From the NCBI GenBank assembly GCA_026414765.1, contig JAOAIJ010000047.1:27297-91296 (forward strand): a stretch of DNA of 64,000 nucleotides, read 5' to 3'. Both the position numbers and the translations under genes were made by a program. Shown piece by piece: positions 10,701 to 59,300 of the stretch (its first letter is position 1; each line of letters starts with the position of its first letter). The notes below the pieces were generated by a model. The model was not told the origin of the DNA, did not search any database, and saw only the letters and a list, made by a program, of their open reading frames with translations. This DNA is from Clostridia bacterium (GTDB taxonomy: Bacteria > Bacillota > Clostridia > Acetivibrionales > DSM-27016).

Positions 10701-10706
10701 AATGTA

Positions 10707-12512: not shown

Positions 12513-12610
12513 CAAAACGAGTGAATTTATCGGGAAATTATTATAGTAGCGCTTTTTGTAAACTAAGTGTAAAATATATATGTATTTTAAAACACTCAAG
12601 GAGATAATCA

Positions 12611-13969: not shown

Positions 13970-13985
13970 ACGAGGAGTGATAACT

Positions 13986-14258
13986 ATGGTGAAAGCGGTT
14001 ATAACCGTTATCGGTCAGGACAAAGTGGGAATAATAGCTTCTATCAGCAATATACTTGCAGAATTCAATGTCAACATACTGGATATTTCTCAGACAATCA
14101 TGCAGGAAGTTTTTACTATGATAATGATGACTGACATTTCTCAAATGAATACAAGCTTTTCCATACTGTCCGATAAGCTTGAAAACAAGGGAAAAGAGCT
14201 TGATTTATCAGTTAAGATCCAGCACGTGGATATTTTCAACTCCATGCATAGAATATAG
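13986..14258 (+). CDS. ACT domain protein (UPF0237 family), the usual partner of UPF0210
   Basis: GAGGAG RBS 8 nt before ATG 13986. MVKAVITVIGQDKVGIIASISNILAEFNVNILDISQT. Confidence 0.8.
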   Translation: MVKAVITVIGQDKVGIIASISNILAEFNVNILDISQTIMQEVFTMIMMTDISQMNTSFSILSDKLENKGKELDLSVKIQHVDIFNSMHRI

Positions 14259-14290
14259 CTATCGGAATTCCCTGAAGCAGGTAAGTATTT

Positions 14291-14324
14291 AAAAAGGCGA
14301 TACCCTCAAGTATCGCCTTTTATA
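14291..14324. terminator. bidirectional rho-independent terminator (ACT gene / citrate synthase)
   Basis: AAGGCGATAC-CCTCAA-GTATCGCCTT flanked by A5 and T4. Confidence 0.85.
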
Positions 14325-14328
14325 TTGT

Positions 14329-30609: not shown

Positions 30610-33600
30610 TCATATACCCATCATAGCACATAATTTGTTATAGTACTCGTATTCAAGCTTAATTGCACGATCCAGCTTTTCAGTACATGTTAAGAATGTT
30701 TCCCTCTTATAACGCGATGTATATAAAAGTCTTGCGATCCTTGCCCTTATGAAACTCAGAAGATCTATGCACTCCAGAATAATTCCCTCGATTTCGGAGT
30801 AGTTTGTAACCAGTCTGGAATTTCTGTAGTTCATTGCCTGTTTTGCATTTATCAAGTTGTTAAGCAGTTCCAGCACCAGTGCAGCACTTTCTTTGATTGC
30901 TCCTTCATCCGCTGCAGCTGCTTCAAACTGCTTATAAAACTCTTCATAATACTTGAAACTGTTGAATACTTCATTTTTCACTTCAATAAAGTTGGCTTTG
31001 AAGCTGTGCAAATCATCCTCGTCTTCAATATCAGCCAAACCTTCAATTGAGCTGAATTCATAATAACTTGGGAACTCAGTTTTGTCATGAACCTTCATGG
31101 ATGCAAACTCGATTTCAGAAATATCGATGTTTCTGAAATTCTCCAGGAAGCCATTATATGCATTAACCAAATCCGAATAGCCTATAGTACGTTTTTCATA
31201 AACAAGGCTTCCTGAATGGCGATGCTCCAGTATATCAAAGGTTTTTTCCCTCTCATTAAACCCATAAATCAAAAGGCAATGAGGCCAGTGTGTTTTTTGG
31301 TATGTGTCCTTCCTTATGGATTCATAAAAACAGTCTACACAAACGATAACAAGCTTGTCTGCAGAAATCGCCCTGACTATATCCTGGGTCAGAGTGCTGG
31401 TGTACGGCTTTGATTCTACATGTATCCCAAGCCTTTCCGATACTTCAAAAATTGGGGTTTTCATTAAGTACCCTACATTTACTCCTTCTACCCCCATATA
31501 TTCCCTGTTTCCGTATATACCGATTTCATTTGCCATGTAGGAAAGCACAGATTTGTTAAAATGCCTCACTACCGGAAAAAGTGCACTATAAAAGCATCCC
31601 CTATAAATTATTTCATTAAATGGCTCGACACTATCCAATACCTTCAATTCATCTGAAGAACCGGTTTGTTTGACACTGCTTGCAGTCACCTTATCTTCTG
31701 ACGCCTTCTCTTCAAAGGCTTTAATGTTGTCATCATCACTGCTTTCTGTTTTCTGTACAATATCACTTGCATTTTCCCCTTTATCCAGGTATTCAGCCAA
31801 TTCATATATTGTAGGATGGCTGTTAATATCCGAATATTCTATTATCAGGTTGCTTTTCTCCATTTCAGTTTCCATTCGTACTGCAAGTAATGAATTTCCT
31901 CCCATAGCAAAGAAATCATCATTAATGTCTATTTCCTCCATCCCAAGGAGAGTACCCCAAATCTGCCCTATTATCCTTTCTGTACCGGTATAGTTGCCGT
32001 CTCCTCTTCCTTTAAGCTTTACGTCAGCAAGCTGTGTATTGGATTTTGCTATATTGTTATTCCCTGCTCTGTCTTTTAGTCTTTTTACCGCAGCTGATAT
32101 TTCCGTTGAGATTTTAAAAGGCAGCTCGGTTTCATTTTGGAAAACTTCATGCCCATAATCCGGTTCAGCTATAACTATTCTTCCTACATTCCTGCCAAGT
32201 ACTTCTTCAAAAGCACTTAATGCGTCAGCAGTTGAAATCGTCTTGAATATGTCATCCTTATCAGCCCCAAATTCAACAGCCATTCCGGTTTCCTTCCATG
32301 CAGGCCAATTGATTGTTATTGTCCTTTTTCCTTGCTTGTTCCTGTAGAAACTGAATGAATCCAGGTATGAATTTGCAGCTGTATAGTCCCCCTGCCCGGC
32401 CCCGCCCAATATGGATGCAATGGATGAGAATGATATAAAGAAATCCATCTCTTCACTCCGGGTCAGGTTGTCCAATATCCATGCTCCGTCCATCTTAGGA
32501 TTAATAACGCTTTTGAACGTATCTTCACTCCTATTTATAATAAAACCATTACCTGCTACTCCGGCAGCGTGTATGATGCCGCTTACCCTGCCATATTTCC
32601 CTCTCAGCTCATCTATCAGGACTTTCATAGCATCAAAGTTTGTTACATCAGCACTGCAGCATACAATACTTGCTCCGGAAGCCTCCATCGCCTTTATAGC
32701 TTCAATCTGCTTACAAACCTTCCTGTTTTCATTCTTTGAAAGTATACCGTCCCAGTCCTCCCTCTCCGGGAATTGTGAACGGCTAACAAGGCATAAGTTA
32801 ACTTTTCCTTTCGACGATAGATATTTACCGATTTCCAGACCTAATCCGCCCATACCTCCCGTTATCAGATAGATACCTTCAGCTTTTATTTCGCAGCTGA
32901 CCGCTGCTTTCTCTTCAATATCCATCCTCCGGAACATTTCTATATATCTCTTTCCATTCCTATAGGCAGCCATATACTTTTTACTATCAGATTTAATTTC
33001 ATTAAGAAGATCATCCGCACAAGTATTTTTATCTATGTCCAGACACCTTAAGCTCAATTTGTCATTTTCAGCACCGACAACCTTCCCAATGCCCATGAAA
33101 GCGGCATTATAAGGGTTTATAGCTTCTTCCTCCCCATTAACTTCACTTGCATAATCAGAAATCAATAGCATCTGCAAATTATTTTTAAGTTTTTTGCTTG
33201 ATACCGTCTTAGCTATATAGTACATGCTGAATAATCCATTTTTCTTTTTGCTTTGCAGACTCTCAAAAGTTTCCTTCTCAACAGTTCCGTAAATATTAAG
33301 CATATGTACGATTTTTGAGTATTCATGGATGTTTATGTCTTCGATTAACTTATTGTAGTCTTCTTGTATTCCTTGGATAACAAACCTGTTTTCACCGGTT
33401 TTCTGATACTTGTCTCCAAGTTCTACTTCCGTTACACTGGCACCTGAATCTTTCAATGATTTTACCAGCTCATCTGCAGTCTGAACTTTACTTTTTAATA
33501 CAAGTATTTTCAATCCAGAAATATCTTGCTCTCCGGCTTTCAGATCCTCCTGTACCCAACTCATTTCATAATAAGGACTGCCTTTTCCTGATAATTTTCT

Positions 33601-41306: not shown

Positions 41307-42578
41307 CTATGCGGAAAAGTCCTTATCACTAAATAAGTGTTTCAGACCTGTTTCCTTAAATAACTGATCAAACCTACTGTTTTGTTCCTCCAACGGAGTT
41401 TTTTTAGTAGCAAAAACAGATTTCAGCATGTTTAGTGCTTCCTGCATCTGCTCAATCGTTGGTTCATTTCCAGCGATCTCCATATCCTCCTGCATTTGCT
41501 TCACCTTCTTATATGGCTTGATTACACCATTTTGATACTCATCGTTGTCCCAATTGTTGTTTTTGGTGCATACTGCAATTGCAAGACATCTTGTAATCAG
41601 CTTCATGCGCATTTCTATACAGTCTTGTACTTTAACCGGAATTATTGAAAGTGCTTCTCCCAAATTCTTTATATCCTCTTCCTGGTCATATGAAAATGTA
41701 TTAATTGAAGAAGTGTTGTTCTTCATAAGATTCCTCAATACTGTCTGTGGACCAAGCTCAATTGCCAGATTAACCCCTTGCGCTTCGAGATACTTCATGG
41801 ATTCAATCCAGCGTACGGGCTTTATTATTTGCTGGTACAGGCAGTCCACTATGTATTCGTAACCATCATAGGGCAAAGCAGTAACATTTGAAACCACGTC
41901 CCACTTCAAATGGCTGTATGCGTACTTCTGGAGTTCTTCTCTCAGTTTGTCTGCAGCAGGCTGCATCAGAGGACTGTGAAATGGTGCACTTACTTTTAAA
42001 GGTATTACTCTTGCACCTGACTTTTTCAGTTCATCACCTGCACCGTTAACAGCGGTTGTATGGCCTGAAATAACAATCTGTCCGGGTGAGTTGTAATTTG
42101 AGATTACAACCATACGGTCATTATCTGAAAACTTTTTGCATACAGCTTCTATTTCTTCTTTATTTATTCCGCTGACAGCCGCCATCGCGCCTATACCCTG
42201 AGGAACAGCTTCCTGCATAAACCTGCCCCTGCTGCGGACAATGCTTACAGCGTCCTGGAATTTTATTGCTCCTGCACATACCAGAGCAGAAAACTCTCCC
42301 AGACTGTGTCCTGCAAGATATGCTGGCTCTTCCCCAAATTCACTCATATATGCTTTAAAAGCAGCTACACTGACAGTTAGTATTGCAGGCTGTGTATTTT
42401 CAGTTTTTGTCAATTCCGCTATATCACCTTCAAAACAGAGTTTTTTCAAATCAAATCCCAACACTTCACTTGCTTCACCAAACAGTTCCCTGGCCTCAGG
42501 ATAATTTTCATAAAGATTTTTACCCATACCTACATACTGAGAACCCTGACCCGGAAACAATAATGCAATCTTTTTCAT
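41307..42578 (-). CDS. discrete (trans) acyltransferase, FabD-like with a ~110-aa C-terminal extension, copy 2
   Basis: LFPGQGSQYVGM, GHSLGEFSAL, RGRFMQ, VSAPFHSPLM. The ATG directly abuts the TAA stop of the upstream NRPS gene. Confidence 0.88.
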   Translation of the reverse strand: MKKIALLFPGQGSQYVGMGKNLYENYPEARELFGEASEVLGFDLKKLCFEGDIAELTKTENTQPAILTVSVAAFKAYMSEFGEEPAYLAGHSLGEFSALVCAGAIKFQDAVSIVRSRGRFMQEAVPQGIGAMAAVSGINKEEIEAVCKKFSDNDRMVVISNYNSPGQIVISGHTTAVNGAGDELKKSGARVIPLKVSAPFHSPLMQPAADKLREELQKYAYSHLKWDVVSNVTALPYDGYEYIVDCLYQQIIKPVRWIESMKYLEAQGVNLAIELGPQTVLRNLMKNNTSSINTFSYDQEEDIKNLGEALSIIPVKVQDCIEMRMKLITRCLAIAVCTKNNNWDNDEYQNGVIKPYKKVKQMQEDMEIAGNEPTIEQMQEALNMLKSVFATKKTPLEEQNSRFDQLFKETGLKHLFSDKDFSA

Positions 42579-45500
42579 TTATATCATCCTTTCTATAATT
42601 GAATCTATAACCTCTACATAGTAGTAAGCCAGCTCATCAATCTTTTCTTTTCTTATACGGTTTGCATCGTACTCAAATGTCAGGTTTAATATGTCATTTT
42701 CAATCCTTGCCTTCAGGATAATATCAAAGTAGTTTGTATGATCTGAATCTATAGTGCCGCTGTTGTGGGAAAAAAGCAAAAACACCGAATCTATCTGCTT
42801 GTCACTTCTGATATTCCTTAAGTATTTAAGTGGTAGCGAATCATTTTTACTAATTTTCTCCCTTTTTTCTGCTACAGTTTTGATTAATTCCCTTATGTCC
42901 TTTAAGCCTCCCAGTTCAAATTCCATAGGCATTACCCGTTCTGTACCCTCTAATACAAGGCTTATAGGTATTTCTTCTTTTCCGGACAATTCATAAAACA
43001 AATACACATATGCTCCAAGTAATACATCACTTAAAGCAGTACTATGTTTTTCCGCCGCTTTCACCAGAGCAATACTTGTTTCAGAGTCCAGCTTAAGATT
43101 AATGATTGTGTTTTCGTTCTCTTCTTCATTATCTGTAAAGTACTCCGGCACAATCTTAAGGGATTGGAATTTCACATCACTTATAGTAATTTCTTCTCCT
43201 CCCTCTATCATTTCTGCCAGTTTTGATATTGAAGGATGTGCAAAAATATCTGCAACGTTTACCTTTCCAGGATAATGCTTTTCCAGCTCGGCATGCATCA
43301 TTACCAGAAGTAGTGAGTTTCCGCCAAGCTCAAAAAAGTTATCATCAACACCGATCAGATCCCGCTTCAAAACTTTTCCCCAAATATCAGCAAGTACTTT
43401 TTCCGCTTCTGTCTCTGCGCCTTTATATTCCGATGATAGCTTCGGCCTGTTGAAATCCGGTTCCGGCAGAGCCTTTCTGTCAATTTTTCCATTTGGAGTA
43501 GAAGGAAGCTTGTCCATATGTACATAAATATCCGGAACCATATATTCAGGTAAACTTTTTGACAGGTGATTCCTCAAATCCGACAGGGAAATTTCTGCAG
43601 GTGACGAATAATACGCCACAAGGAACTTGATTCCTGTTTGATCTTCCTTTGCAACTACTGCACATTCTCTGATTCCCTCAAATCTGCTCAGATGCTTTTC
43701 TATTTCCCCTGGCTCAATCCTGTATCCCCTGATCTTCACCTGCTGATCCACTCTTCCCAAGCACTCCAGCCTGCCATCATGTAAAAGCCTTGCCATATCT
43801 CCGGTGCAGTACATTTTTTCACTCTCATGGAAAGGGTCATCAATAAATTTTTCAGCTGTCAGCTCCGGCCTGTTCAAATAACCTCTTGCCAACCCGTCAC
43901 CGGCAATGCATAGTTCCCCGGCAACCCCCACAGGTACAGCTTTTTTCGCTTTATTAAGAACATATACTCTTGTATTTGCAATCGGCTTGCCGACATCTAT
44001 GTTTTCAGCACCTGAAAGCTCACTTATTGTAGACCATACTGTGGTTTCAGTCGGTCCGTACATATTATATATCCTTGAATCTGTCAATCCTTTTAGCTCC
44101 AATAAAAGATTTTGTGGGAAAGCTTCTCCACCTATCATAATTATCTTAAGCTTTTTTAGACAGGAAAGACTGCTGGCACCCTTCAACAGAAGCTGCATCC
44201 TTGAAGGTGTAATTTGAAGCATTTCAACATTATTTATGTCAATTACCTCATTTAAAAGTTTTGAATCCCGCTGCTGCATTTCATCAGCAATGACAATTCT
44301 CAAACCCTTTGTCAAAGGCAGAAGTATTTCAAGTACATGAATATCAAAAGATATTGTCGTCAATGCTAGGATACTTTTTCCCTTACTGAAATCTATTCTG
44401 TCCGTAACTCCTTTGATAAAATTTGAAACAGCTTTATGCTCAATCATTACACCTTTAGGTTTACCGGTTGAGCCTGAAGTATATATAACATAGGCAAGGT
44501 CCTCAGAAGTATTTACAATTTCAGGATCGCCGGTTTCTGAACAATAAGCCTTTTCATCTTCCAAGTTTACTAAATCAATACCCGATAGTCCGGCTCCAGC
44601 TTCCGAACTGCCCGAAAACCCCAATCTGTCTAATAACGAAGATTGAGTTAACAATATTTGAGCCCCGCTGTCCTCCAACATATAAGTCACTCTATCCATA
44701 GGATAATCGGGGTCTATAGGTAAATAAGCCCCACCGGCTTTTAATACAGCCATAATAGCTACTACCATATCAACGGACCGTCCTGTCATTATGCCTACTA
44801 TGCTGTCAGGCTTGACACCTTTTTTCCTCAGAGTCCACGCTATCTGGTTTACTCTTTTGTTCAGATCTGCATATGTCAGCGCATTACCATGGAAAACTGC
44901 AGCCGGACTCTCAGGTGTATTTTTTACCTGCTCCTCAAATTGCTCATGTATTGTTTTGGATTTTGGATACTCAGTATCCGTATTGTTGATACGGTAGACA
45001 GCATTTTCCTTTTCTTCAGGAGTCAGCATATCAATTTCGCAGAGCTTGGCTTCAGGATTATTGATCGCATTTTCCAATATGTTTATAAAATGCCTTCCAA
45101 GCCTCTCTATTGTTTGCCTTTTGAATATCCCGGCATAATAATTTATTTCCAGCTCTATTTCGTTCTTGCTTTCAGTAGCAATGAAACTCAAATCATATTG
45201 AGCCATTTTGAATTTGTAATCATATCTGCTGATATCCAAGCCTTCTGCTTTTATTTCATCAATCCGCATGTTCTGCAAAATGAACATCGCATCAAATATA
45301 GGGTTTCTGCTCAAATCCCTTTTTACCTTAAGTTCATCTACCAGCTGCTCAAAGGGATAATCCTGGTTATCAAACACTTTTAGAACATTACTTCCTACTT
45401 CCTTCAAAAATTCTTCAAAGGATTTATCGGGCTCAGGAAAATTTCTGAATACCAGTGTATTCACAAACACTCCCAATACACTATATGTGTCCGCATGCCT

Positions 45501-46562
45501 TCTTCCTGCCGTAGGTGAACCTACGATAATATCATTTTGTCCGGAGTAGTTTGCCAAAAGAAGGTTGTATACCGCCAGCAGCAGGGTAAACAATGTAATT
45601 CTTTTCTCCCTGGCAAACTTATTCAGTTTTTCCTTAAGCTCATATTCAATCTTAATCTTTAATGTATCACCTTGAAAACTAAACACCTGCGGCCTCATAT
45701 AATCGGCAGGAATATCCAAGGCAGGGATTTCACCTTTCAGCTGTTCATGCCAGAAAGTTTTTTGTGCCTGAATAAGATTACTCTTTAAAAGCCGCCTATG
45801 CCAGTACACATAGTCTTTATACTGTATCCTTAATTCAGGCAGGCCCTTTCCTGCATACAGGTCATTGATTTCTTTTACAAGGATTGATTCAGAGATACCA
45901 TCAGAGATTAAATGATGCATATCCTGTATCAATATATGGATAGGAATACTACCTGAACTCTTTAGCTTCACCAGTTTGAATCTGAACAGAGGCAGCTTGG
46001 AAAGATCAAAAGGCCGTATAAAATCCTTTATAACCGCTTCTAAGTTTTCTTCACCATCTTCCAGCTCCTGGTATTCTATACTTAATTCTACCTTACTATG
46101 AACCCTCTGTATCGGTTCGCCATCCCTAAGTTCAAAACTGGTTCTTAAGGGTTCATGCCTTTGTGCCAGTTTTTCTATAACTTTAGAAAACTTTGTCCTG
46201 TCAAAATCTCCATGGATTTTTAAAACCTGTGTAAGGTTATACGCTGTACTGTCTTTGTCCGACAGGGTCATAATATACATTCTCTGCTGTGCGGCAGATA
46301 AAGAGTAATTCTCACTTTCTTCGATTTTTACAATTGGCTGGTAAAAAATATTATCTTCATCTTGTGTTTCAAAAAATGCGATAATCTCAGCTTTCTTTTC
46401 TATGATAAACTTTTGTATCCCGTCTGTAATAGACCCCTTCGGAGCCTTGTAACGTAATGCACCGTTATCAACCCATAGCTTTATTTTCTTTTTTCCGATT
46501 TCTGTAACGAAGTCACTAACCGACATTTCGAAATAATCTTCACGGTTATTTTCTTCAAACAT
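42579..46562 (-). CDS. NRPS module: TubC_N-type docking, C, A (Gly-like code), T, truncated C-terminal half of a C domain
   Basis: KLWVDNGALRYKAPKG; C3 MHHLISDG; A: YTSGSTGKPKG, GELCIAGDGLARGY, NGKIDRKAL; T: FFELGGNSLL. Pocket code read as DILQMGMVWK. Confidence 0.9.
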   Translation of the reverse strand: MFEENNREDYFEMSVSDFVTEIGKKKIKLWVDNGALRYKAPKGSITDGIQKFIIEKKAEIIAFFETQDEDNIFYQPIVKIEESENYSLSAAQQRMYIMTLSDKDSTAYNLTQVLKIHGDFDRTKFSKVIEKLAQRHEPLRTSFELRDGEPIQRVHSKVELSIEYQELEDGEENLEAVIKDFIRPFDLSKLPLFRFKLVKLKSSGSIPIHILIQDMHHLISDGISESILVKEINDLYAGKGLPELRIQYKDYVYWHRRLLKSNLIQAQKTFWHEQLKGEIPALDIPADYMRPQVFSFQGDTLKIKIEYELKEKLNKFAREKRITLFTLLLAVYNLLLANYSGQNDIIVGSPTAGRRHADTYSVLGVFVNTLVFRNFPEPDKSFEEFLKEVGSNVLKVFDNQDYPFEQLVDELKVKRDLSRNPIFDAMFILQNMRIDEIKAEGLDISRYDYKFKMAQYDLSFIATESKNEIELEINYYAGIFKRQTIERLGRHFINILENAINNPEAKLCEIDMLTPEEKENAVYRINNTDTEYPKSKTIHEQFEEQVKNTPESPAAVFHGNALTYADLNKRVNQIAWTLRKKGVKPDSIVGIMTGRSVDMVVAIMAVLKAGGAYLPIDPDYPMDRVTYMLEDSGAQILLTQSSLLDRLGFSGSSEAGAGLSGIDLVNLEDEKAYCSETGDPEIVNTSEDLAYVIYTSGSTGKPKGVMIEHKAVSNFIKGVTDRIDFSKGKSILALTTISFDIHVLEILLPLTKGLRIVIADEMQQRDSKLLNEVIDINNVEMLQITPSRMQLLLKGASSLSCLKKLKIIMIGGEAFPQNLLLELKGLTDSRIYNMYGPTETTVWSTISELSGAENIDVGKPIANTRVYVLNKAKKAVPVGVAGELCIAGDGLARGYLNRPELTAEKFIDDPFHESEKMYCTGDMARLLHDGRLECLGRVDQQVKIRGYRIEPGEIEKHLSRFEGIRECAVVAKEDQTGIKFLVAYYSSPAEISLSDLRNHLSKSLPEYMVPDIYVHMDKLPSTPNGKIDRKALPEPDFNRPKLSSEYKGAETEAEKVLADIWGKVLKRDLIGVDDNFFELGGNSLLLVMMHAELEKHYPGKVNVADIFAHPSISKLAEMIEGGEEITISDVKFQSLKIVPEYFTDNEEENENTIINLKLDSETSIALVKAAEKHSTALSDVLLGAYVYLFYELSGKEEIPISLVLEGTERVMPMEFELGGLKDIRELIKTVAEKREKISKNDSLPLKYLRNIRSDKQIDSVFLLFSHNSGTIDSDHTNYFDIILKARIENDILNLTFEYDANRIRKEKIDELAYYYVEVIDSIIERMI
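42582..43190 (-). other. 203-aa C-terminal lobe of a condensation-like domain lacking the HHxxxDG lobe
   Basis: IINLKLDSETSIALVKAAEKHSTALSDVLLGAYVYLFYELSG...LNLTFEYDANRIRKEKIDELAYYY. This matches the pattern seen after motif C3 in the two full C domains of this cluster. Confidence 0.5.
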
Positions 46563-46627: not shown

Positions 46628-47818
46628 TTAAAACCCATCAAGATTATTTATTGAATTTTTTAGTTGAATGAATATCTCCTCCTCGTAATCCGCGAGAGCC
46701 TTAACCCTGAGAGAAATTTTGGTGTTTACCGGGTCCGGCTCATCCAACAAAGCCCCCTTCATAACAAGTGTGTGCACTGTATGCCACTTTGAGGATGCTG
46801 TCTCCAGTCCGGCAATAATTGTAGATATATCAGGCACATCATGATATACGCTCAGGGCTTTTAAGAATTTTGCAAACTGCCGTCTTCCCCGGACAATCTC
46901 ATCAATCTTTAAAGATATAAGCCAGTTATAGAAATTGTTATACTCTTGAGCTTCTTTAACATAATCAATGTTTTTTTCAAAGTAGCCTGCAAATTCCCTC
47001 ATGGCATTAAACGCTCCGGGAGTTTGCTTTTTGCCTTCGATTTTCAGCATATTATCCTTTAGAAGGTCAAGCCAGGGCAGCTGACTGTTTACATTTTCAT
47101 CAAACCTGATTTTAGTTATTATTGGGCCAATACCTTCTTTAAGTTCATCAACCGAAATATACAATTGTTTTTCCGGTGAAGTGTATGGGTCTATATATAT
47201 AAGGCTATTATTGAGGGAATCTATTCCAACCGCCATAAACGAGTGATAATAAAAATGACTCTTCTTATAATTAGGTGCACAAGGATTCCAATAAGAGTCT
47301 ATCCAAATGATTAAAGGCCTTCCTTCTTCCAGTTCACTCTTAGCAGTATCCAGAACTTGTTCTAACGACTTTACCTCGCAGTTGAAAAGCTTAATGCCAA
47401 GGAAATCTTCTGCCAGCCGCTGGGAATCATTGATACCTGAATCAATCATATTACCAATGATTCCTTGCCTGTCAGCGTCCGGTGTAAATTCGAATCCCCA
47501 TGAATCGGCAAAAACCACTTCATATTCCAGACCTCTCCAGACTGCCAGACTGGCTATCAAGTCCTGAGTACAGTCACAAGTAACATCATGAACGGAATCA
47601 ACATTCAGTAAAATATAGTTTTTACGTAGACTTCTTACTATTTCTTCTTTTTTTTCCCCTATTGTTTTTAGCATCTCCTGTGTAAGTACCCCTTTTGGAG
47701 CCTTATAACGCAATATGTTTCCATCTACCCACAATTTTACCTTCCTATTGTTAAGTTCTTCCAAAAGGTTGTTAATTGTCTGGCTGCCGTCCTCAATGTT
47801 ACCTATGTTCACAAGCAT
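46628..47818 (-). CDS. stand-alone BtrH_N/DUF4872-like Cys/His protein with an N-terminal TubC_N-type NRPS docking domain
   Basis: N-terminus LLEELNNRKVKLWVDGNILRYKAPKGVLTQEMLKTIGEKKEEIV, then CDCTQDLIASLAVWRGLEYEVVFADSWGFEF and EEGRPLIIWIDSYWNPCAPNYKKSHFYYHSFMAVGID. GGAGGGG RBS. Confidence 0.6.
   Translation of the reverse strand: MLVNIGNIEDGSQTINNLLEELNNRKVKLWVDGNILRYKAPKGVLTQEMLKTIGEKKEEIVRSLRKNYILLNVDSVHDVTCDCTQDLIASLAVWRGLEYEVVFADSWGFEFTPDADRQGIIGNMIDSGINDSQRLAEDFLGIKLFNCEVKSLEQVLDTAKSELEEGRPLIIWIDSYWNPCAPNYKKSHFYYHSFMAVGIDSLNNSLIYIDPYTSPEKQLYISVDELKEGIGPIITKIRFDENVNSQLPWLDLLKDNMLKIEGKKQTPGAFNAMREFAGYFEKNIDYVKEAQEYNNFYNWLISLKIDEIVRGRRQFAKFLKALSVYHDVPDISTIIAGLETASSKWHTVHTLVMKGALLDEPDPVNTKISLRVKALADYEEEIFIQLKNSINNLDGF
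47621..47785 (-). other. TubC_N-like docking domain on the BtrH-like protein
   Basis: KLWVDGNILRYKAPKG core, shared with the N-termini of the NRPS genes at 46365..46529 and 56150..56314. Confidence 0.7.
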
Positions 47819-47843
47819 TTTGCCCCTCCAGATAGTTCGTCGA

Positions 47844-49106
47844 TTATGCTGTATAGTCTTTAAACAAATCCTTTGTCCCTGTTGTTTCCAGTATTTTATT
47901 TAGCCTTTCCATCTGCTCGCTGGCAGGAACCTTCTTGGTGTTCAGCACATTTTTCAGCATATCCAAAGCCTCCCTGACCTCTTCGATTGTAGGCTGTCTG
48001 CCTTCCTTTTCCAGCTCATCACGCAAATTTGTCATTTTTCTATATGGCTCAACAACACCTTTTTGGTATTCCTGTTCATCCCAGTTACTGTTTTTTGTAG
48101 AGACAGCAGTCGCAATGCATTTAGTAATAACGGACATTCCTTGCTTTATGTCTTCCACTCCACTGCCATCCGATGATAATAGCTTCTTTGCAGCTTGTAC
48201 GTCAGAGTCTACATCATAAGAAAATGTCTTTATGCCCGGAGCATTTTTCTTCATAAGATTTCTCAACACTGTCTGTGGCCCCAGCTCTATAGCCAGCTCA
48301 ACTCCCTGCTTTTGTACAAACTCCATGGAAGGCTGCCATCTTACAGGCTGTACGATCTGCTTGGATAAATATTCAATTATGCTTACACTTCCCGGATATG
48401 GCATGGCAGTCACATTTGAAACGACAGGAAACTTCAGTTCATTGTATGAGTATTTCCCCATTTCTTCCATTAATTTTTCTGCAGCCGGCTTCATCAGGGG
48501 ACTGTGGAAAGGAGCGCTTACTTTTAGAGGAATTATCCTTGCTCCAAGGGATGTAAGCTTTTCACCCGCTTCTTTTACAGCTTCTGAATGCCCTGATATG
48601 ACAATCTGATCAGGAGAATTGTAGTTTGATACAACTACAGTTTTTCCATTAATTGAAGCCCTGACACAAACGTCTTCTATAACACTCTTATCTACTCCAC
48701 TGACAGCCGCCATACCACCTAACCCCACAGGTACGGCTTCCTGCATGAATTTCCCTCTCTGCCTCACTATCCTTACAGCATCAGAAAAGTTTATCCCTCC
48801 GGCACAACATAAAGCAGAAAATTCACCCAGACTGTGTCCTGCTGCAAATTCAGGCTCTATACCTATTTCCTTCATATATACCCTGAATGCCGCTACACTG
48901 GCAGTTAATAATGCCGGCTGTGTATTCTCGGTTTTCGTCAATTCTTCCATACTGCCTTCAAAACAGAGCTTTTTCAAGTCGAAACCCAAAGTCTCGTTTG
49001 CTTCCTGAAAGATTTCTCTTGCCTCCGTATACAAGTCGCAAAGATTCTTTGCCATTCCAACGTATTGTGAACCCTGTCCCGGAAATAATAAAGCAATTTT
49101 TTTCAT
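47844..49106 (-). CDS. discrete (trans) acyltransferase, FabD-like with a ~110-aa C-terminal extension, copy 1
   Basis: GGAGGAA RBS supports ATG 49106 (MKKIALLFPGQGSQYVGM). GHSLGEFSAL, RGKFMQ, VSAPFHSPLM. Clear paralogue of 41307..42578. Confidence 0.88.
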   Translation of the reverse strand: MKKIALLFPGQGSQYVGMAKNLCDLYTEAREIFQEANETLGFDLKKLCFEGSMEELTKTENTQPALLTASVAAFRVYMKEIGIEPEFAAGHSLGEFSALCCAGGINFSDAVRIVRQRGKFMQEAVPVGLGGMAAVSGVDKSVIEDVCVRASINGKTVVVSNYNSPDQIVISGHSEAVKEAGEKLTSLGARIIPLKVSAPFHSPLMKPAAEKLMEEMGKYSYNELKFPVVSNVTAMPYPGSVSIIEYLSKQIVQPVRWQPSMEFVQKQGVELAIELGPQTVLRNLMKKNAPGIKTFSYDVDSDVQAAKKLLSSDGSGVEDIKQGMSVITKCIATAVSTKNSNWDEQEYQKGVVEPYRKMTNLRDELEKEGRQPTIEEVREALDMLKNVLNTKKVPASEQMERLNKILETTGTKDLFKDYTA

Positions 49107-49153
49107 GTGATTTCCTCCAATCATAACTCTTTGTTTTGTATATTTAATTAAGT

Positions 49154-52100
49154 TTAAAATTCCCCTTCTTCAAAACCCTCTTCGCTGTCCTCTTCTTCTG
49201 CTTTGGCAGACTCTTCCGAATCCCCGTCAAACAATTCTGCCAGCTGCGCTACTGTAGCCCTCTCAAAAAGGCTTTGCAGCGTTATGTTCTTTTTAAACTC
49301 TTTTGCAAGCTCTGAAATCAGTGATGTAGCTAATAATGAATGTCCACCCAGATCAAAAAAGTCATCATTGATCCCTACAGGATAAACCCCTAGAAGATTC
49401 TGCCACATCTCTGCTATAACCTCTTCAGTTCCATTTCTCGGAGCTTCATAAGGAGTTTGAAGTTCAGGCCTGTTACTGCCTTTCTCCTTGTCTTGATTGA
49501 CTACAGCTTTTCCCGCAGCAGTAGCCTTCAAATAATTCCTGATGTTTTCTAGCATGCCTGTGAAGTCTCCGGATGAAACTATTACCTGAGCAGATGCCTT
49601 TGATGATACAATTCTGTCAAGAAGATTCAAACCTTCCTTCACTGTAATTTTATTCTTTACCCTATCTCTTGACTTGCTCTCCGCAGCCATTCCTACCTCA
49701 TCCCATTCATCCCAGTTTATTGCTACTGTGGATGTATCTGAGCAACTGTTTTTATAGTGGGCAAAAGCATCCAGGAAATTATTTGCGGCACAGTAATCGA
49801 TAAAACCTGCATTACCCAGAATAGCGCTGCTTGAAGAGAACAACACAAGAATATCAAGTCTTCTATCCTTGAATAATTCATCTAATACCAGTGTCCCTTC
49901 AACTTTTGGGGTTAAGACTTTAGCAGCTGTCTCATCACTTTTTTCCTGAATCAACCCATTATCCGCAATACCAGCAGCATGTAAAACACCGTCTATATTT
50001 CCGAACTTCTCATCTGCTTTAGCGATAACCTTCCTCATCTGTTCGAGATTCGAAGAATCAGCATTTACGACCATTATTTGGGATCCCAGAGCTTCAATAG
50101 CTTTCAACTGTTTTATTTTTATGCTTGTTTTATCATCAGCACCATGTGAAGACAGCCATTCCTCCCAATTTTCTTTTTCCGGGAAAAATGAACGCCTGGT
50201 CAGCACCAGATTTACTTTTGCCTTTTCTGCCATATACCCGGCAAGTGCAAGCCCGATACCCCCCATTCCGCCTGTTATCAGGTATGTTTTTCCTTCACGC
50301 ACAAAGCTTCTATCGTTGTCGGCTTCCAAAGTTATGCTTTCATGTGTCTGAAGCCATCTGTGCGTGCCCCTCAAGGCAATAATGAACTCAGGGTCTTTTG
50401 ATGTTAACTCTGCCAGGATCAAACCTATGAGCTTTTCTTCCGCATCTGCTGTTTTAGGCAACACTATATCAATGCTCTGACATGAAATTTTCGTATACTC
50501 TCTCGGTATAACCTTACATGGACCCAATACTACCGCTTTTTCAGGATGAACTGTTTGCTCGCTGGAAATCACATGCATATTATTTGTTACAGCAGCCAGC
50601 CTTACATTTTCATCAAGTTCCAGTTCACCCAAAGCTTGTGCTATATACATCAAACTGTAGAATCCATCAATCTGGCACCTTTTTGAAGCTTCAATCCTGG
50701 AATACACATTGCTGTCCCCTGTTACATTCCAAAGATGAACTATATTCCTCAAAGGTTTATCCGAATCTGACACCTCATGGAACAGTGCCCTATAGTCAGC
50801 TTTCTTTTCAGGATTCAAGACAAATGTTGTATCATTTATCTTTCTGAATCCTTCTGCCTTACCAACCGTAATCACATATATGTTTTCTTCTCTGAGGGTT
50901 TTTGCGATTCTTGCCCCCATACCTGTCTCATCCTCAAAAACAATCCAGCATCCTTTTTTGTTCACATTTTTACTGTCAAATGATAATGAGGCTGCCCTTT
51001 TCCAGGATGGTAAATAAAGCCAATTGTTAAAATCCGTGTTGATTGTGCTGACCTGATTCTTTTTATTGACAAACTCCGTCATATTATACTGCTCTACCCA
51101 ATATTTCTTCCTCTCAAAAGGATAAGTCGGGAGTGGAATTCTAAGCCTCTGTTCTCCTTCATGGAACTCTTCCCAATCTATGGCTGAGCCTTCTACCCAC
51201 AGCTTTGCTAAAGCTGTCAGCATAACTTCTTCGTTTGCATTTTTCTCGCCAATAATTTTACTGGTCTCGGAGTATTCACTATCTACATTCTCAGAAATCC
51301 CGGAAAAAATGTACTGCCCCTCTTTTAGTTCAAGAAGACGTACAGCATCCTCCTTATTTTTACAGACAATGGCTCGCCTGTGCTCAAATTCCTTTCTGCC
51401 TATATGCAGTGTGTAAACAGCATCAGCAAAATTGACATTTGGATTGTCTTTGAAAAAACTCGCCAGGTTATCACACATTTTATCCAGTGCCGCAGGGGTT
51501 CTTGCCGATAAGGTTATCAACTGCCACTGTCTGGATGGAGCTGAAGATTTCGAGTCAGGAGCTTCCTCCAAGACAGCGTGGACATTTGTCCCTCCGAAGC
51601 CAAAGGAACTGACACCAGCTATCCTTGGCTTTCCGGTACTTTTCCAGTCTGTAAGCTTAGTATTTACATAAAAGGCGCTGTTTTCAAAATCTATTTTAGG
51701 ATTTGGCAGATCAAAATTTATACTTGGCGGAATCTCTTTATGTTCCAAAGCCAGCGCAGTCTTTATCATTCCAGCTACGCCCGCACCTGATATGGCATGT
51801 CCGATATTACTCTTAACCGAACCTATTGCACAAAAACCTTTCTTTTGTGTGCTCTGATTAAACACCTGTGTAAGAGCCGATATTTCAATAGGATCCCCGA
51901 GTGAAGTGCCTGTACCGTGAGCTTCTATGTAACTTATATCTTCAGGGTTTACACCTGCAAGATTCTGTGCTGCTGCTATTACTTCAGCCTGACCTTCCCT
52001 GCTGGGTGCTGTAAATCCAACCTTTGTTGAACCATCATTATTAACAGACATTCCTCTGATAACTGCATATATGTGGTCACCATCTCTTATGGCGTCTTCC

Positions 52101-52864
52101 ACACGTTTCATCAGAATCACTCCGACAGCGCTGGTAAAAATAGTTCCGTATGCATTGCTGTCAAAAGGCCTGGTATGCCCGTCGGGTGACCCGATCATTC
52201 CTGTCTGGTATAAGTAACCTGATTTCTGTGGAAGCTTTATCCCTGACCCTCCGGCCAAAGCCATATCACAGTGATAATTCAACAAACCTTCATATGCCAT
52301 TGCAATAGCAGTCATTGAAGTCGAGCAGGCAGACTGTACATTTATGCTTGGCCCCTTAAAGTTAAACTCATATGAGGTTCTTGTAGCCAGATAATCTTTG
52401 TCGTTTCCTATTGCAATAGCCAGATCATCCTTTACTCCCAGTTTATTAAGCAAATGATAAAGGAAATAGTAGCTCATGTTGCTACCAGCATAAACTCCTA
52501 CAGGATAATCATAGTCATTTCTTGAATAGCCTGCATCTTCCAAGGCCTCATAGGAACATTCAAGAAAGAGTCTGTGCTGAGGATCCATGTTTTCTGCTTC
52601 CCTAGGATTAAAGCCGAAGAAACCCGCATCAAACATATCAATGTCATCAAGTATTCCTCCCGCAAAGACATAATCAGGGTTATTCAAGCTTTCCTCATCA
52701 ATCCCGCAAGCCCTTGCATCGTCTTTTGAGAAATACGAAATGGATTCTACTCCATTTTTAAGGTTATTCCAAAACTCCCTTATATTCCTTGCTCCAGGAA
52801 ACCGTCCTGACATTCCTATAATAGCTACTCCCTCAAGTGCATTTTGTGTAGGCAAATTATCCAT
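49154..52864 (-). CDS. trans-AT type I PKS: KS-KR-T with an acidic C-terminal tail
   Basis: KS: QSACSTSMTAIA, EAHGTGT, SNIGH. KR: TYLITGGMGGIGLALA, IDYCAAN. T: FFDLGGHSLLATSL. Tail EEEDSEEGFEEGEF. The start lies 3 nt after the upstream stop. Confidence 0.9.
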   Translation of the reverse strand: MDNLPTQNALEGVAIIGMSGRFPGARNIREFWNNLKNGVESISYFSKDDARACGIDEESLNNPDYVFAGGILDDIDMFDAGFFGFNPREAENMDPQHRLFLECSYEALEDAGYSRNDYDYPVGVYAGSNMSYYFLYHLLNKLGVKDDLAIAIGNDKDYLATRTSYEFNFKGPSINVQSACSTSMTAIAMAYEGLLNYHCDMALAGGSGIKLPQKSGYLYQTGMIGSPDGHTRPFDSNAYGTIFTSAVGVILMKRVEDAIRDGDHIYAVIRGMSVNNDGSTKVGFTAPSREGQAEVIAAAQNLAGVNPEDISYIEAHGTGTSLGDPIEISALTQVFNQSTQKKGFCAIGSVKSNIGHAISGAGVAGMIKTALALEHKEIPPSINFDLPNPKIDFENSAFYVNTKLTDWKSTGKPRIAGVSSFGFGGTNVHAVLEEAPDSKSSAPSRQWQLITLSARTPAALDKMCDNLASFFKDNPNVNFADAVYTLHIGRKEFEHRRAIVCKNKEDAVRLLELKEGQYIFSGISENVDSEYSETSKIIGEKNANEEVMLTALAKLWVEGSAIDWEEFHEGEQRLRIPLPTYPFERKKYWVEQYNMTEFVNKKNQVSTINTDFNNWLYLPSWKRAASLSFDSKNVNKKGCWIVFEDETGMGARIAKTLREENIYVITVGKAEGFRKINDTTFVLNPEKKADYRALFHEVSDSDKPLRNIVHLWNVTGDSNVYSRIEASKRCQIDGFYSLMYIAQALGELELDENVRLAAVTNNMHVISSEQTVHPEKAVVLGPCKVIPREYTKISCQSIDIVLPKTADAEEKLIGLILAELTSKDPEFIIALRGTHRWLQTHESITLEADNDRSFVREGKTYLITGGMGGIGLALAGYMAEKAKVNLVLTRRSFFPEKENWEEWLSSHGADDKTSIKIKQLKAIEALGSQIMVVNADSSNLEQMRKVIAKADEKFGNIDGVLHAAGIADNGLIQEKSDETAAKVLTPKVEGTLVLDELFKDRRLDILVLFSSSSAILGNAGFIDYCAANNFLDAFAHYKNSCSDTSTVAINWDEWDEVGMAAESKSRDRVKNKITVKEGLNLLDRIVSSKASAQVIVSSGDFTGMLENIRNYLKATAAGKAVVNQDKEKGSNRPELQTPYEAPRNGTEEVIAEMWQNLLGVYPVGINDDFFDLGGHSLLATSLISELAKEFKKNITLQSLFERATVAQLAELFDGDSEESAKAEEEDSEEGFEEGEF

Positions 52865-55800: not shown

Positions 55801-56314
55801 ATTTGATTTTATTTTCAATCTCTTTTTTATGTACATGGCTCAGATCTACTTCAGCCAGATCTACATCAGCCTTCTTATTAATTACCTGTACAGGACTGCC
55901 ATTTACATTTTTAAAAGTAGTCCTTAGTGATTCATGGCGCTCTACCAATTTTTCCAATGACTTTCTTATGGCTTCCTTGTTTGGTATTCCACTCATTTTT
56001 ACTGCATTGGAAATATTAAACACAGGATTCCCCTTAGTAAACTGGTCAAAAAACCACATAGACTGTTGGGAGAAAGATAGCGGTAGATCTTCCCCTTCAT
56101 CTCTGGATATCCTTTTAATCGGCTCTTTGACCGCTTGAGCCTCCATTTTTACTTGCTTAAGAAATGAAATAACCTCATTCTTTCTATTTGAAAGTTCACC
56201 GAGCAACTCCTTTGAAACTACCCCTTTGGGAGCCTGATAACGGAGAGCACCTTCTTCCAGCCAAAGTTTTACGCCCAGTTCCCTCAGATGAGTTAGAAAT
56301 TCCAGTATCGACAT
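52868..56314 (-). CDS. NRPS module: TubC_N-type docking, C, A (Ser-like code), T
   Basis: VKLWLEEGALRYQAPKG; C3 IHHIISDAWS; A: YTSGSTGKPKG, GELCIAGVGLARGY, NGKADRKAL; T: FFEIGGHSLL. Pocket code read as DVWHFSLIDK. Confidence 0.9.
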   Translation of the reverse strand: MSILEFLTHLRELGVKLWLEEGALRYQAPKGVVSKELLGELSNRKNEVISFLKQVKMEAQAVKEPIKRISRDEGEDLPLSFSQQSMWFFDQFTKGNPVFNISNAVKMSGIPNKEAIRKSLEKLVERHESLRTTFKNVNGSPVQVINKKADVDLAEVDLSHVHKKEIENKIKLVLKDEARRIFDLEKGPLFRFCLFKTGEEEYVFSMTIHHIISDAWSNAILVGEFFKLYEAFLKEKNLELPLPEIEYADYSSWERNRLQGETLEELLSYWRKQLANPLTLQLPTDYPRPKSQSYEGGFETFRVSRELSEKLKSICNKEGVTMFMLILTAFQALLCRYSGQTDIFTGTVVANRNRKEVESLVGYFMNTLVMRTNFENDPCFTEVLNKVKQMTIDAYTYQELPFDKLLEELKPERDVSRTPLFQVMFILHTTQKVELDLPGLKMEQLAVESGMSPFDLRLQLTETDQGLKGGFDYNTSLFSPSTVERIGYHLLNILESIAANPEVRISKIKLLTEKEERQILEEFNNTDAEYPEEKVIYEFFEEHALKNPDDIAASFGDKQLTYKELNEKANQIARILCEKGMGQESIIGILLERSLEMIIGIMAVVKAGGAYLPIDPHNPQDRINYILEDSNVSLLLSHKKFSDIHVGEKIEKIYLEDEALYTGDKSNLAGKADPHGLAYVIYTSGSTGKPKGTLIEHHSLVNRLNWMQKMYPLIKSDTILQKTPYTFDVSVWEMFWWAMQGAKVCFLEPGAEKDPGKIVKAIEENMITVMHFVPSMLNSFLEYLKDTGETGRVASLKQVFASGEALTAAQVSLFKNLLAKNGTKLANLYGPTEATIDVSYFDCITDNELDSIPIGKPIDNIRLYVMDSKLQLQPVGVPGELCIAGVGLARGYLNRPELTSEKFADNPLEPGKKLYRTGDLAKWREDGNIEYLGRIDFQVKIRGLRIELGEIERVLIEHPSVKDCIVTAWEKQPGNMHLVGYIVCEKDTKTEIDEIKAFLGKALPEYMVPKLFVFLDAMPLSQNGKADRKALPLPELEKKTEYVAPKNELESILANIWKEELGLENVGINDNFFEIGGHSLLLTRVHNRLNKQFQREFSLIDLFTHSTICALAKYISGENAEPAFLKNEDRLQRQKEAKLMRKQLHRRG

Positions 56315-56357: not shown

Positions 56358-59300
56358 CTATAATGTACCTCCCTCAAGCTCTTCATCATCAGCAGCCGCT
56401 GCACTTTCAGCAGCCCATCTGTAAGTCTCTATCAACTCGGCTATCCCTGCAATGGTAGTGGTTTCAAAAAGTTTTCTCATAGGTATCTGGACATCAAACC
56501 TCTTACCAAGTTCTGTAGCTACTGCCGCTGCAATCAAAGAGTGTCCACCCAGTTCAAAAAAGTCGTCATATACACCTATAGTGTCGTATCCCAAAACATC
56601 CTGCCACTTATCAGCTATTGCCTTTTCAACTTCATTCCTCGGTGCTGTATAAGAGGTTTCTAATTCAGGACGAGGTCTTTTCTTCAGTTTTTCATTACTG
56701 TTTAAACCATACACATCCGATTTGCTGTTATTTTTCAGACCTACCGAAGATACTTCGACCTTTGGCGAAATATTGCCGAATTCCTTGCTCAGTTCCTCCA
56801 GACGTTTCTTTAACTCTAATATCTCTTCAAGCTGTTTTTTACGCAGCTCATTATCTTTTAAGCCTTCATCATCATCATCAAGATTTACAGTCAAAGTGAT
56901 TTTCCCTTCTGTATATCCCGAATCGATCAATTCATCTGTTATTTCTTCCTTCTTTGAAATGAATACATCAGGCTGTTGGGCATCGACACTACGCTTTCCG
57001 GGTTCTATCCAGTAGCGTTGTCTTTCAAAAGGATATGTCGGCAATATAATACGGTGCCTCTTTTCATTTGAATAGAATTTATTCCAATCAACCCTTCCAC
57101 CTGCCAACCAGAACAAACCAACACATTTTAGTAGTGCTTCCGAATCCGACTTGCCTTCATTTTTAGCTTGCATGGATGAAAGTATGGCTTGGTCTGCATC
57201 CTTTTTTCTAAATTTCTCAACTTCATCACATATTCTCTTTCCGGGACCTATTTCGATAAGTATCTGATCCGAATCCTTCAGTACCTCCTGCAAGCCTTCA
57301 CTAAAGCGTAGTGCCCTGCGCTGGCGTATCCAGTAGTCCTTGCTTGCAGCATCCGAATCCGAAATCCAACTACCTGTAACACATGAGATAAACGGAATTT
57401 TAACTGTATTAAAATTGATAGTTGACATACTTTCCGGCAAGATTTCATCCCTGGAAGCAGCCATCTTCAATGCATCTTCCAGCGTCATGACCTCAGCTAT
57501 ACATGCCGCCACATATTCTCCTACACCTTCGCCAATCATATATTGAGGCTCTATCCCCCACTTAATCATCAGCTTAGCCAGTGAATACTCAATAGTAAAC
57601 ATCGCAGCCCTGCCAACACTGTACTCATCCATCTTTCTTGCAGCTTCTTCAATTGAAGTATCGGGATAAAGTAACTTACGTATGTCTATGTTTAATAAGC
57701 TTTCCAGTATCTTTCCGCATGAATCCACTGTCTTTCTGAAGAAGCTTTCCGTATTATACAGTTCTAAGCCCATATTCACATACTGGCCTTCTCCGGGAAA
57801 CATAAATACTACAGGCTGCTCCTTTGGTTTTTGGAAATGAGAAAAGACACGGTCAGCTGGCATTGATTCTAAACTTGCTGCCAAATCTGCATTGTCACGG
57901 CACAGCACTACCCTGCGGTGATTGAAATTCCTTCTGCCCACATGTAATGTGAATGCTGTGTCAGCCAGGTTTATATCAGGATTTTTTCTCATATATTCCG
58001 CAAGGTTACTTGTCATCTTTTCCAGTGCAGTACCAGTCTTTGCCGATAATGATATCAACTGCCATGGTCTGCTTGATTTCTTAGAAGGTTCCAGTTCCGG
58101 TGCTTCTTCCAATATTACATGCGTGTTTGTACCACCTATTCCAAAGGAGCTTACTCCTGCCCTTCTCGGGAATCCATTTGTCTCCCACTTTGAAAGTTTG
58201 GTATTTACATAAAAAGGACTGTTTACAAAATCAATCTTGTGGTTAGGTTCTTCAAAATTCAGGCTTGGCGGTATTACCTTGTGCTCCATTGCCAGAACGG
58301 CCTTAGCCAGACTTGCAAGCCCTCCCGCATTTACAAGATGCCCTATGTTCGTCTTAACAGAACCGATAGCACAGAACTGTTTCTTTTTTGTATGAGATCG
58401 GAAAGCTTTAGTTAATGCTGCTATTTCTATAGGATCGCCCAGATCCGTACCCGTCCCGTGACCGTCAATGTATGTAATTGTCTCAGGGTCAATTCCTGAA
58501 ACAGCTATAGCTTCTGCAATACACTCAGCCTGCCCATCCACATTTGGGGCTGTATAACTGTTTTTATTCGAGCCGTCATTATTTATTCCCGTTCCTTTTA
58601 TGACAGCGTGTATATAATCACCATCTGCTAAGGCATCCTCAAGTCTTTTCAATGCTACTATGACGAGACCGCTTCCGCTTACTGTCCCATTAGCTTTAGA
58701 GTCGTAAGCACGGCAGTGGCCATCTGAAGATCCGATTCCACCTTCCTGGTAGAAAAAGGCCTCGTTTCTTGAAACCTGAAAGCTGACACCACCTGCAAGG
58801 GCAAGGTCACAGCTGTAGTTTTGAAGGTTCTGGCATGCATAGTGCAATGCAACCAGTGAAGATGAACACAATGTATTAACATTTACGCTTGGCCCCATCA
58901 GATTCATCTTGTATGATACCTTTGTGGATAAGAAATCCTGTCCGTTTGCAAGCATGATTTTAAACGTTCCTACGCTTTCCACCAGGCCTGGGTTTGAATA
59001 AAGATTCCGTATCATATATCCGCTTAAGTTTGCACTTCCAAATACCGCTACTCTTCCATCATACAGTTCGGAGTTATATCCTGCGCGCTCAAGTACTTCC
59101 CATGCGCTTTCAAGAAATAGTCTGTGCTGGGGGTCCATGACTTCAGCTTCTCTTGCTGAGTAGTCAAAGAAAGATGCATCAAACTCATCCATCCCGTCGA
59201 GAATCGCATCTGCAGCTACAAACCTTGGGTTATCCAGCAAATGTTCATCTATACCCATCTTTAATAATTCATCACGATTGAAAAACTTTACAGATTCTAC

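Follow-up and report, generated by a model that had tools for sequence, protein, structure and literature searches.

A β-hairpin docking domain fused to a BtrH/CtaG-like papain-like domain in a clostridial trans-AT PKS-NRPS gene cluster: a candidate docked transacylase

A stretch of 64,000 nucleotides from a Clostridia bacterium (GenBank assembly GCA_026414765.1, contig JAOAIJ010000047.1, positions 27,297 to 91,296; hereafter, the window) contains a gene cluster for an assembly line of trans-acyltransferase (trans-AT) polyketide synthases (PKSs) together with nonribosomal peptide synthetases (NRPSs). All cluster genes, and with them all window features given below, are located on the minus strand. 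The gene at 46628..47818 encodes a 396-residue protein with the NCBI name 'MAG: C39 family peptidase [Clostridia bacterium]' (MAG, metagenome-assembled genome), and a preliminary description of this DNA had read it as a BtrH-like enzyme headed by the kind of docking domain that opens NRPS subunits. This raises the question of where on the assembly line such an enzyme would dock and what it would do there. Analyses of the open reading frame, Pfam profiles, a structure model and Foldseek matches revealed a fusion protein in which a β-hairpin docking domain (bHD) is joined to a BtrH/CtaG-like catalytic domain. We consider it probable that this protein is a docked trans-acting transacylase. The chances appear evenly balanced for the more specific proposal, namely that it is a docked thioester-transfer enzyme that off-loads intermediates at a subunit composed of ketosynthase (KS), ketoreductase (KR) and acyl carrier protein (ACP) domains, in competition with the glycine (Gly) module.

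The fusion protein contains two domains in frame: the bHD (residues 12-66; 47621..47785), with the hairpin KLWVDGNILRYKAPKG, and a papain-like domain (residues 68-396). The Pfam profile TubC_N (PF18563) matched residues 15-65 with an E-value of 6e-16 and 58.7 bits; the gathering score is 26, which was exceeded by 33 bits, and every consensus residue of the hairpin was kept. In a sequence search of the PDB with phmmer, residues 15-66 matched the bHD of AerJ (E 3e-8), TubC (E 4e-5) and EpoB (E 4e-5). The AlphaFold2 (AF2) model, built on an alignment of 48 homologues, showed a predicted local distance difference test score (pLDDT) of 92.1 and a predicted template modelling score (pTM) of 0.87 for the whole protein. 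In this model, the bHD is predicted to adopt an α-β-β-α-α fold with an exposed β-hairpin (helices 12-24, 47-55 and 57-66; strands 28-32 and 35-39; pLDDT 82-93). Upon superposition by Foldseek, it overlaid on the AerJ bHD (8aqq) with a TM-score of 0.83, a root mean square deviation of 1.4 Å and a sequence identity of 38%. These results bear out the earlier proposals that the first ~65 residues form a TubC_N fold and that they are homologous to the N-termini of both NRPS subunits in the cluster, as TubC_N opens all three proteins.

The catalytic domain, which includes a C-terminal helical region, is encoded at 46631..47617 and was assigned from Pfam and Foldseek matches to the BtrH/CtaG type. 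BtrH_N (PF14399) matched residues 83-203 with an E-value of 5e-9 and 36.9 bits (gathering score 29.7); thus, when the suggested TubC_N and BtrH_N searches were run, each domain passed its Pfam gathering score. A weak match to DUF4872 (PF16169), the region that makes up the C-terminal part in BtrH itself, was also obtained (E 0.27; 11.4 bits, cut-off 28), and the homologue P0007 scored 22 bits with the same profile. The model predicts a mixed α/β region at residues 68-239 followed by long helices at residues 249-394, which corresponds to the bipartite architecture of an N-terminal papain-like region followed by a C-terminal one rich in helices (PMC12865890). A Foldseek search against the PDB aligned the whole domain with CtaG over 334-349 columns (E 5e-9, TM-score 0.67-0.69), although the two proteins were only 14-16% identical in the structural alignment; the AziU2/AziU3 pair matched the fusion protein at scores near those of CtaG. 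The predicted nucleophile Cys83 (codon 47570..47572), near-invariant in our family alignment, was conserved in 98% of 150 relatives, and the predicted catalytic residues His192 (47243..47245) and Asp210 (47189..47191) were conserved in 95% and 98%, respectively. The triad is intact, and its spacing resembles that of C11/H128/D144 in CtaG, which were proven experimentally (PMC7183216). The Cys/His enzyme of BtrH type named in the preliminary description is therefore present. Residues I69/L70 aligned with Met1 of stand-alone homologues, which indicates that the bHD was fused at the very start of a gene of the stand-alone type.

We also considered the NCBI name. C39 bacteriocin-processing peptidases belong to the same papain-like clan, but the Peptidase_C39_2 match was partial (residues 146-212, 27 bits, profile positions 79-143), covering only the C-terminal half of the profile. 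Neither an ABC-transporter fusion nor a leader-peptide substrate gene was found in the window, and ABC transporter and precursor genes were absent nearby. By both structure and sequence, the best relatives are acyltransferases instead, and the peptidase reading was rejected.

The signals around the gene are those of a genuine reading frame. A Shine-Dalgarno sequence, GGAGG (47825..47829), lies 6 nt before the ATG, forming a strong ribosome binding site, and the stop codon of the upstream trans-AT gene (47844..49124; FabD-like, 426 residues) precedes the fusion gene by 25 nt, an operon-like spacing. The gene order was as previously claimed, with the trans-AT gene, the fusion gene and the NRPS with the Gly code in succession. 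It is extremely improbable that the fusion is a product of MAG assembly or frameshift, or a decaying gene. Such an origin would fit with its occurrence on one contig and as one sequence in 5.8 billion clusters, and with the failure to find close relatives in GTDB genomes or JGI metagenomes. However, the reading frame is continuous, the junction DNA shows no frameshift signs and no ambiguous run, and the translation on either side yields consensus sequence. The bHD shares only 38-43% identity with those of the neighbouring NRPSs (43% with that of the Gly NRPS) and thus is not a mis-joined copy of them. The intact triad and the confidently predicted fold likewise argue against an artefact.

To what extent the fusion is shared by homologous proteins was assessed by searching 1.84 billion representative proteins exhaustively with HMMER, residues 66-396 serving as the query. 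This search revealed 749 relatives at E < 1e-3 (409 at E < 1e-10), and the architecture was inspected for the best 150 of the 749. Bare proteins of ~320 residues accounted for 56 of these 150, another 83 contained an unannotated C-terminal extension of ~205 residues, and nine were embedded behind a thiolation (T) or ACP domain near the end of a megasynthase. A bHD directly before the catalytic domain was found in the query only, and the closest relative, P0002 (42% identity), has no bHD; the possibility that this is a common, already annotated architecture was thus not supported among these 150. A degenerate DNA pattern specific to the fusion (the bHD hairpin, 58-68 residues, then WG of the conserved SWGF motif) matched only this gene in the window and had no match in 241 million metagenome contigs. 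Close relatives were found neither in GTDB species genomes nor in JGI metagenomes. Word-index searches with the full-length protein and with the family profile returned essentially only the query and are uninformative on the rarity of the fusion.

The ~205-residue extension had no Pfam match and was present in all C-terminally fused relatives (P0003-P0006 and P0008 are among the proteins that have it). Its motifs include DLSxYxNNxGFG, DNISC, LGCxExGNxS, IAWxG and HxFAISL (alignment columns ~390-570). The fusion protein, P0002 and every other protein of the window lack it.

We collected 77 loci from GTDB genomes with the neighbouring trans-AT as a probe. Seven of these (L007, L010-L014 and L017) contained the cassette of KS-ACP, serine (Ser)-type NRPS, KS-KR-ACP, AT and Gly NRPS, with protein identities of 50-74%; two of them, L011 and L012, belong to cultured Ruminiclostridium cellobioparum. 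Each of the seven syntenic clusters had the Gly NRPS gene directly after the AT gene (with a spacer of 137 nt in L007); no BtrH gene lay between them, and the BtrH-like domains of these clusters were either free-standing or fused behind T domains. The adjacency of AT and Gly NRPS in seven of seven clusters suggests that the lineage of the window acquired the fusion gene at this site.

The docking site was approached through the C-terminal tails of the cluster proteins. As had been claimed, the proteins ending at 49154 and 56358 bear acidic C-terminal tails, and both tails were read after carrier domains. They are the KS-KR-ACP protein (49154-52864), whose tail peptide ...AEEEDSEEGFEEGEF ends in the short linear motif SEEGFEEGEF (49157..49186), and the KS-ACP protein (56358-59414), whose tail peptide ...AAADDEELEGGTL ends in DDEELEGGTL (56361..56390). 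An acidic tail behind a carrier domain was found in these two cluster proteins only; the last PKS has none. Three bHDs are present, on the fusion protein, on the Ser NRPS (56153..56308) and on the Gly NRPS (46371..46520), and because they share two acidic tails, one tail has to serve two partners.

Tail type and bHD type co-varied in eight related clostridial clusters (L007, L010-L015 and L017). In class 1, LEGGT[IL] tails were followed by bHDs with KLWLE..YQAPKG, and in class 2, [FY][DE]EGx[LIF] tails were followed by bHDs with KLWVE..RYKAPKG. A candidate determinant of specificity is the K/Q position in RY(K/Q)AP. When one hidden Markov model (HMM) was built per bHD class, leave-one-out assignment was correct for 16 of 16 sequences. 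The bHD of the fusion protein scored 74.5 bits with the class 2 model and 57.0 bits with the class 1 model, and the Gly NRPS bHD scored 73.8 and 56.0 bits, respectively, with a matching margin; the Ser NRPS bHD belongs to class 1. As the bHD of the fusion protein is of class 2, its predicted docking site is the KS-KR-ACP tail, in common with the Gly module, and the Ser NRPS bHD is predicted to pair with the KS-ACP tail.

A comparable arrangement was found in L004, which represents the same cluster as L014 and whose proteins share 60% (KS-KR-ACP), 65% (AT) and 52% (Gly NRPS) identity with those of the window. In L004, two bHD subunits come after the homologous KS-KR-ACP tail (...EYEEGQI). With C and A denoting condensation and adenylation domains, these are bHD-C-A(Gly)-T-C (4093-8799) and bHD-C-A(Ser)-T-BtrH-extension (9962-15031). 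The two subunits share 98% identity in their bHDs and 73-88% in their C domains, while their A domains are different, so that the pair looks like a natural bifurcation or a recent gene conversion of the N-terminal didomain. One tail followed by two subunits with near-identical bHDs, one of them with a BtrH-like domain, shows that bifurcation at KS-KR-ACP exists in the cluster family. The co-variation within class 2 and the L004/L014 arrangement support, at the level of sequence, the earlier suggestion of a module-like docking of the enzyme, with possible competition against the Gly NRPS for the KS-KR-ACP tail.

The role of the catalytic domain at this site may be seen from its fused relatives, such as P0023 (bHD-C-A-T-BtrH) and P0042 (A-T-KS-AT-T-BtrH). 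In these, the BtrH-like domain lies behind T in a chain-terminating position, which points to the adjacent carrier as the acyl donor. By analogy, the docking domain can be regarded as a non-covalent version of the covalent tether between T and BtrH. CtaG and BtrH have been shown experimentally to pass an acyl group from a carrier-bound donor via the catalytic Cys to an amine (PMC7183216, PMC12865890). In the proposed off-loading mechanism, the bHD would bind the SEEGFEEGEF tail of KS-KR-ACP, and docking would keep the enzyme beside the carrier of this subunit, with the Gly NRPS using the same tail. The ACP-bound intermediate would be a Ser-containing β-hydroxyacyl thioester. Cys83 would accept the acyl chain from the ACP and hand it to a nucleophile, which may be an amine or hydroxyl acceptor, an internal hydroxyl or water. 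The outcome would be a programmed branch or off-loading in competition with extension by the Gly module.

The same docking site would also allow transfer in the opposite direction. The fusion protein could acylate the Ser hydroxyl or the KR-derived hydroxyl of the KS-KR-ACP intermediate, with another carrier or coenzyme A as the donor; this would be a CtaG-like, on-line tailoring acylation and not off-loading. We regard this as unlikely. CtaG does acylate an amine that is itself carrier-bound (PMC7183216, PMC12865890), Ser is activated upstream (code DVWHFSLIDK) and the docked subunit has a KR, leaving hydroxyls free on the intermediate, and bHDs are used by on-line tailoring enzymes such as the AerJ halogenase. 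However, neither a separate small carrier protein nor a stand-alone adenylating enzyme for the donor was visible in the window. Moreover, the intermediate has no free amine, while characterised family members form amides, and the fused relatives occupy a chain-terminating position.

Water is an ever-present nucleophile, and the fold is that of cysteine peptidases and hydrolases, as the NCBI name C39 family peptidase reflects. In addition, both trans-ATs of the cluster look like true FabD-type malonyltransferases, so that an acyl hydrolase is not evident in the window. The fusion protein might then be an editing hydrolase, similar to type II thioesterases, that clears stalled or mis-primed thioesters from one carrier. 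This is quite improbable, as editing enzymes normally serve all carriers and docking to a single tail would be unexpected; the characterised BtrH, CtaG and AsbE are transferases, and related clusters have no gene at this site.

The cluster contains a second candidate for chain release. No thioesterase domain was found in the window part of the cluster, and the last PKS (30610-36471), with KS, dehydratase (DH), KR and ACP domains, closes with a divergent BtrH/C39-like domain of ~350 residues in the thioesterase position (30613..31680), here termed BtrH'. The Pfam match of BtrH' to BtrH_N was weak (E 5e-5), as was that to Peptidase_C39_2; however, the family HMM of the fusion protein matched it with an E-value of 5e-9, and hhalign aligned it with the family profile at 93% probability, with the Cys and His in register. 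The motifs are an invariant GCFY with the Cys and PHCLLIYG with the His. BLASTP between the fusion protein and this C-terminal domain gave no significant similarity, such that their kinship is apparent at the profile level only, and single-sequence structure prediction of BtrH' reached a pLDDT of 39.8. Homologues of BtrH' (33-38% identity) were present in L023 and at the C-terminus of a 2247-residue bHD-NRPS-PKS protein in L017. In the searched literature, BtrH-like domains were not described as terminal domains of modular lines, nor in place of a thioesterase.

With two papain-like enzymes in one cluster, the bHD could be an evolutionary left-over or a weak binder, and the fusion protein could work elsewhere, for example together with the terminal BtrH' in releasing the full-length chain. 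Clusters of relatives often contain two BtrH-like proteins or domains (L001, L005, L006 and L013), the structurally related AziU2/AziU3 crystallises as a complex (8gs1), the linker behind the bHD is very short, and syntenic clusters lack a gene at this site. We nevertheless judge such a role to be improbable. The bHD is well conserved, with its score far above the cut-off, a confident model and a complete hairpin consensus, its matching tail is encoded two genes upstream, and the last PKS offers no acidic tail.

A further extension of the off-loading proposal is that the competition of the papain-like ligase and the NRPS bHD for one ACP tail constitutes a programmed switch. In that case, part of the flux would leave the line midway via the docked ligase, and the rest would be extended and released by BtrH'; the two papain-like enzymes might then attach chains of both kinds, short and long, to a shared acceptor. 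This idea is tentative, and we consider it doubtful.

Several observations weigh against off-loading at KS-KR-ACP by a docked enzyme. The class margin (17.5 bits) is based on 16 sequences, all of them from related clusters. The two classes are also separated by phylogeny, and the class signal could in part reflect shared ancestry. The linkers behind characterised bHDs are flexible and ~20 residues long (PMC9113145); in the fusion protein, residue 66 closes the last bHD helix and the catalytic domain begins at residues 68-70, leaving ~3 residues, and this short linker could, judging from the model, limit the reach to the ACP. The sequence derives from one MAG contig with no independent assembly. 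The step is dispensable for the core pathway, since the seven syntenic clusters have no gene at this site. Finally, no amine- or sugar-supplying genes were visible in the window part of the cluster.

The remaining part of the cluster consists of the following genes. Upstream, a KS-KR-DH-ACP PKS gene (59407-63978) is cut by the window end, which shows that the cluster goes on beyond it. The Ser NRPS (52868-56314; bHD-C-A-T, TubC_N E 3e-20) was assigned from the hand-read code given above. Downstream of the fusion gene is the Gly NRPS (42579-46562; hand-read code DILQMGMVWK, TubC_N E 1e-15), in which bHD-C-A-T is followed by 212 residues (42582-43217). This segment was excluded as the ~205-residue extension of the relatives; it is a condensation-domain remnant with weak C-domain and TIGR01720 matches, in which the HHxxxDG motif is gone. 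The remnant is also found in the syntenic L007 protein, where L004 has a full C domain, and may be an interface to the next KS subunit. A second trans-AT (41307-42578; 423 residues) and a KS-DH-KR-ACP protein (36486-41294) precede the last PKS, and housekeeping genes begin below 30600. Both trans-ATs contain a C-terminal extension of ~130 residues with a conserved ending, and each is placed before a bHD-bearing or KS-starting subunit. That one of them might be an acyl hydrolase was unsupported, as both scored above the FabD equivalog cut-off. The whole looks like a join of two cassettes found apart in other genomes, the second of which occurs in L018-L022, L025 and L054.

Additional observations were made in the related loci. 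At least two BtrH-like genes per locus are frequent, as in L005 (9031-10960, in tandem with an 11-nt overlap), L001 (2800-3861 and 10001-11005) and L006. By analogy with AziU2/AziU3, such paired proteins are possible heterodimers. They adjoin small carrier proteins and adenylating enzymes, forming CtaG-like mini-pathways. Glycosyltransferases are present in related clusters, and L006 also contains sugar-aminotransferase-type genes beside its BtrH-like genes, which hints at sugar-type acceptors. In R. cellobioparum DSM 1351 (L012, 11330-20980) and in L011, the related cluster encodes a bHD-C-A(Gly-type)-T protein with a 370-residue unknown C-terminal domain, a GT2 glycosyltransferase, a stand-alone adenylating enzyme, a 412-residue unknown protein and a 318-residue BtrH-like protein. 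No product of this cluster was reported in the searched literature.

We compared the fusion protein with the known systems that it resembles. The review PMC9113145, in summarising Kosol et al. 2019, lists C, epimerisation, cyclisation, thioesterase (TE), methyltransferase (MT), reductase and halogenase domains as partners of bHDs, and one tail motif can recruit several subunits (PMC9113145). Among the trans-acting enzymes with a bHD are the stand-alone C enzyme Bamb_5915 of enacyloxin (PDB 6cgo), the AerJ halogenase of aeruginosin (8aqq) and bHD-TE, bHD-MT and bHD-reductase proteins. Like Bamb_5915 and AerJ, the fusion protein has an N-terminal hairpin of TubC_N type on an enzyme that is not a module, and it is predicted to pair with a short acidic motif at the end of a carrier. 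In contrast to the published bHD enzymes, its passenger is a papain-like domain of BtrH/CtaG type, its linker is ~3 instead of ~20 residues long, and it is predicted to dock mid-line, at a site in common with an extending module, rather than at the chain end.

CtaG of closthioamide from Ruminiclostridium cellulolyticum (PDB 9quz and others), BtrH of butirosin and AsbE of petrobactin are papain-like, carrier-protein-dependent transacylases, and the fusion protein shares with them the bipartite fold, the Cys-His-Asp triad and the clostridial thiotemplated context. Whereas these enzymes are free-standing, belong to NRPS-independent pathways and need no docking domain to recognise their carriers, the fusion protein is encoded within a modular trans-AT PKS-NRPS line and has a bHD. 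The T/ACP-BtrH fusions of clostridial megasynthases belong to the same family (25-30% identity, E 1e-27 to 1e-34) and the same cluster family. The fusions of P0023/L004 and P0042, however, are tethered covalently to a carrier and contain the ~205-residue extension, where the fusion protein has a bHD instead. Thus, bHDs on trans-acting enzymes, papain-like thiotemplated ligases and the docking principle were already known; the combination of a bHD with a papain-like ligase, the near-absent linker and the mid-line docking site in common with an extending module are new.

Few tools for re-wiring PKS and NRPS lines are as portable as docking domains, and papain-like thiotemplated ligases such as CtaG, BtrH and AsbE are a class of catalyst that was recognised only recently. 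If the proposed docking is correct, such a ligase would be addressable to one carrier through a tag of 55 residues and an acidic tail of roughly 10, which might be used to engineer the off-loading, amidation or branching of intermediates. The two-class code of tails and bHDs provides a testable specificity rule, and the related cluster of R. cellobioparum is a practical experimental handle. More broadly, the finding suggests that BtrH-like domains replace thioesterases in a family of clostridial trans-AT PKS-NRPS clusters, including that of the cultured R. cellobioparum. If the fusion protein does act as a switch, CtaG/BtrH-type ligases, hitherto known only from NRPS-independent pathways, would sit in modular assembly lines in free, fused and docked forms that are interchangeable.

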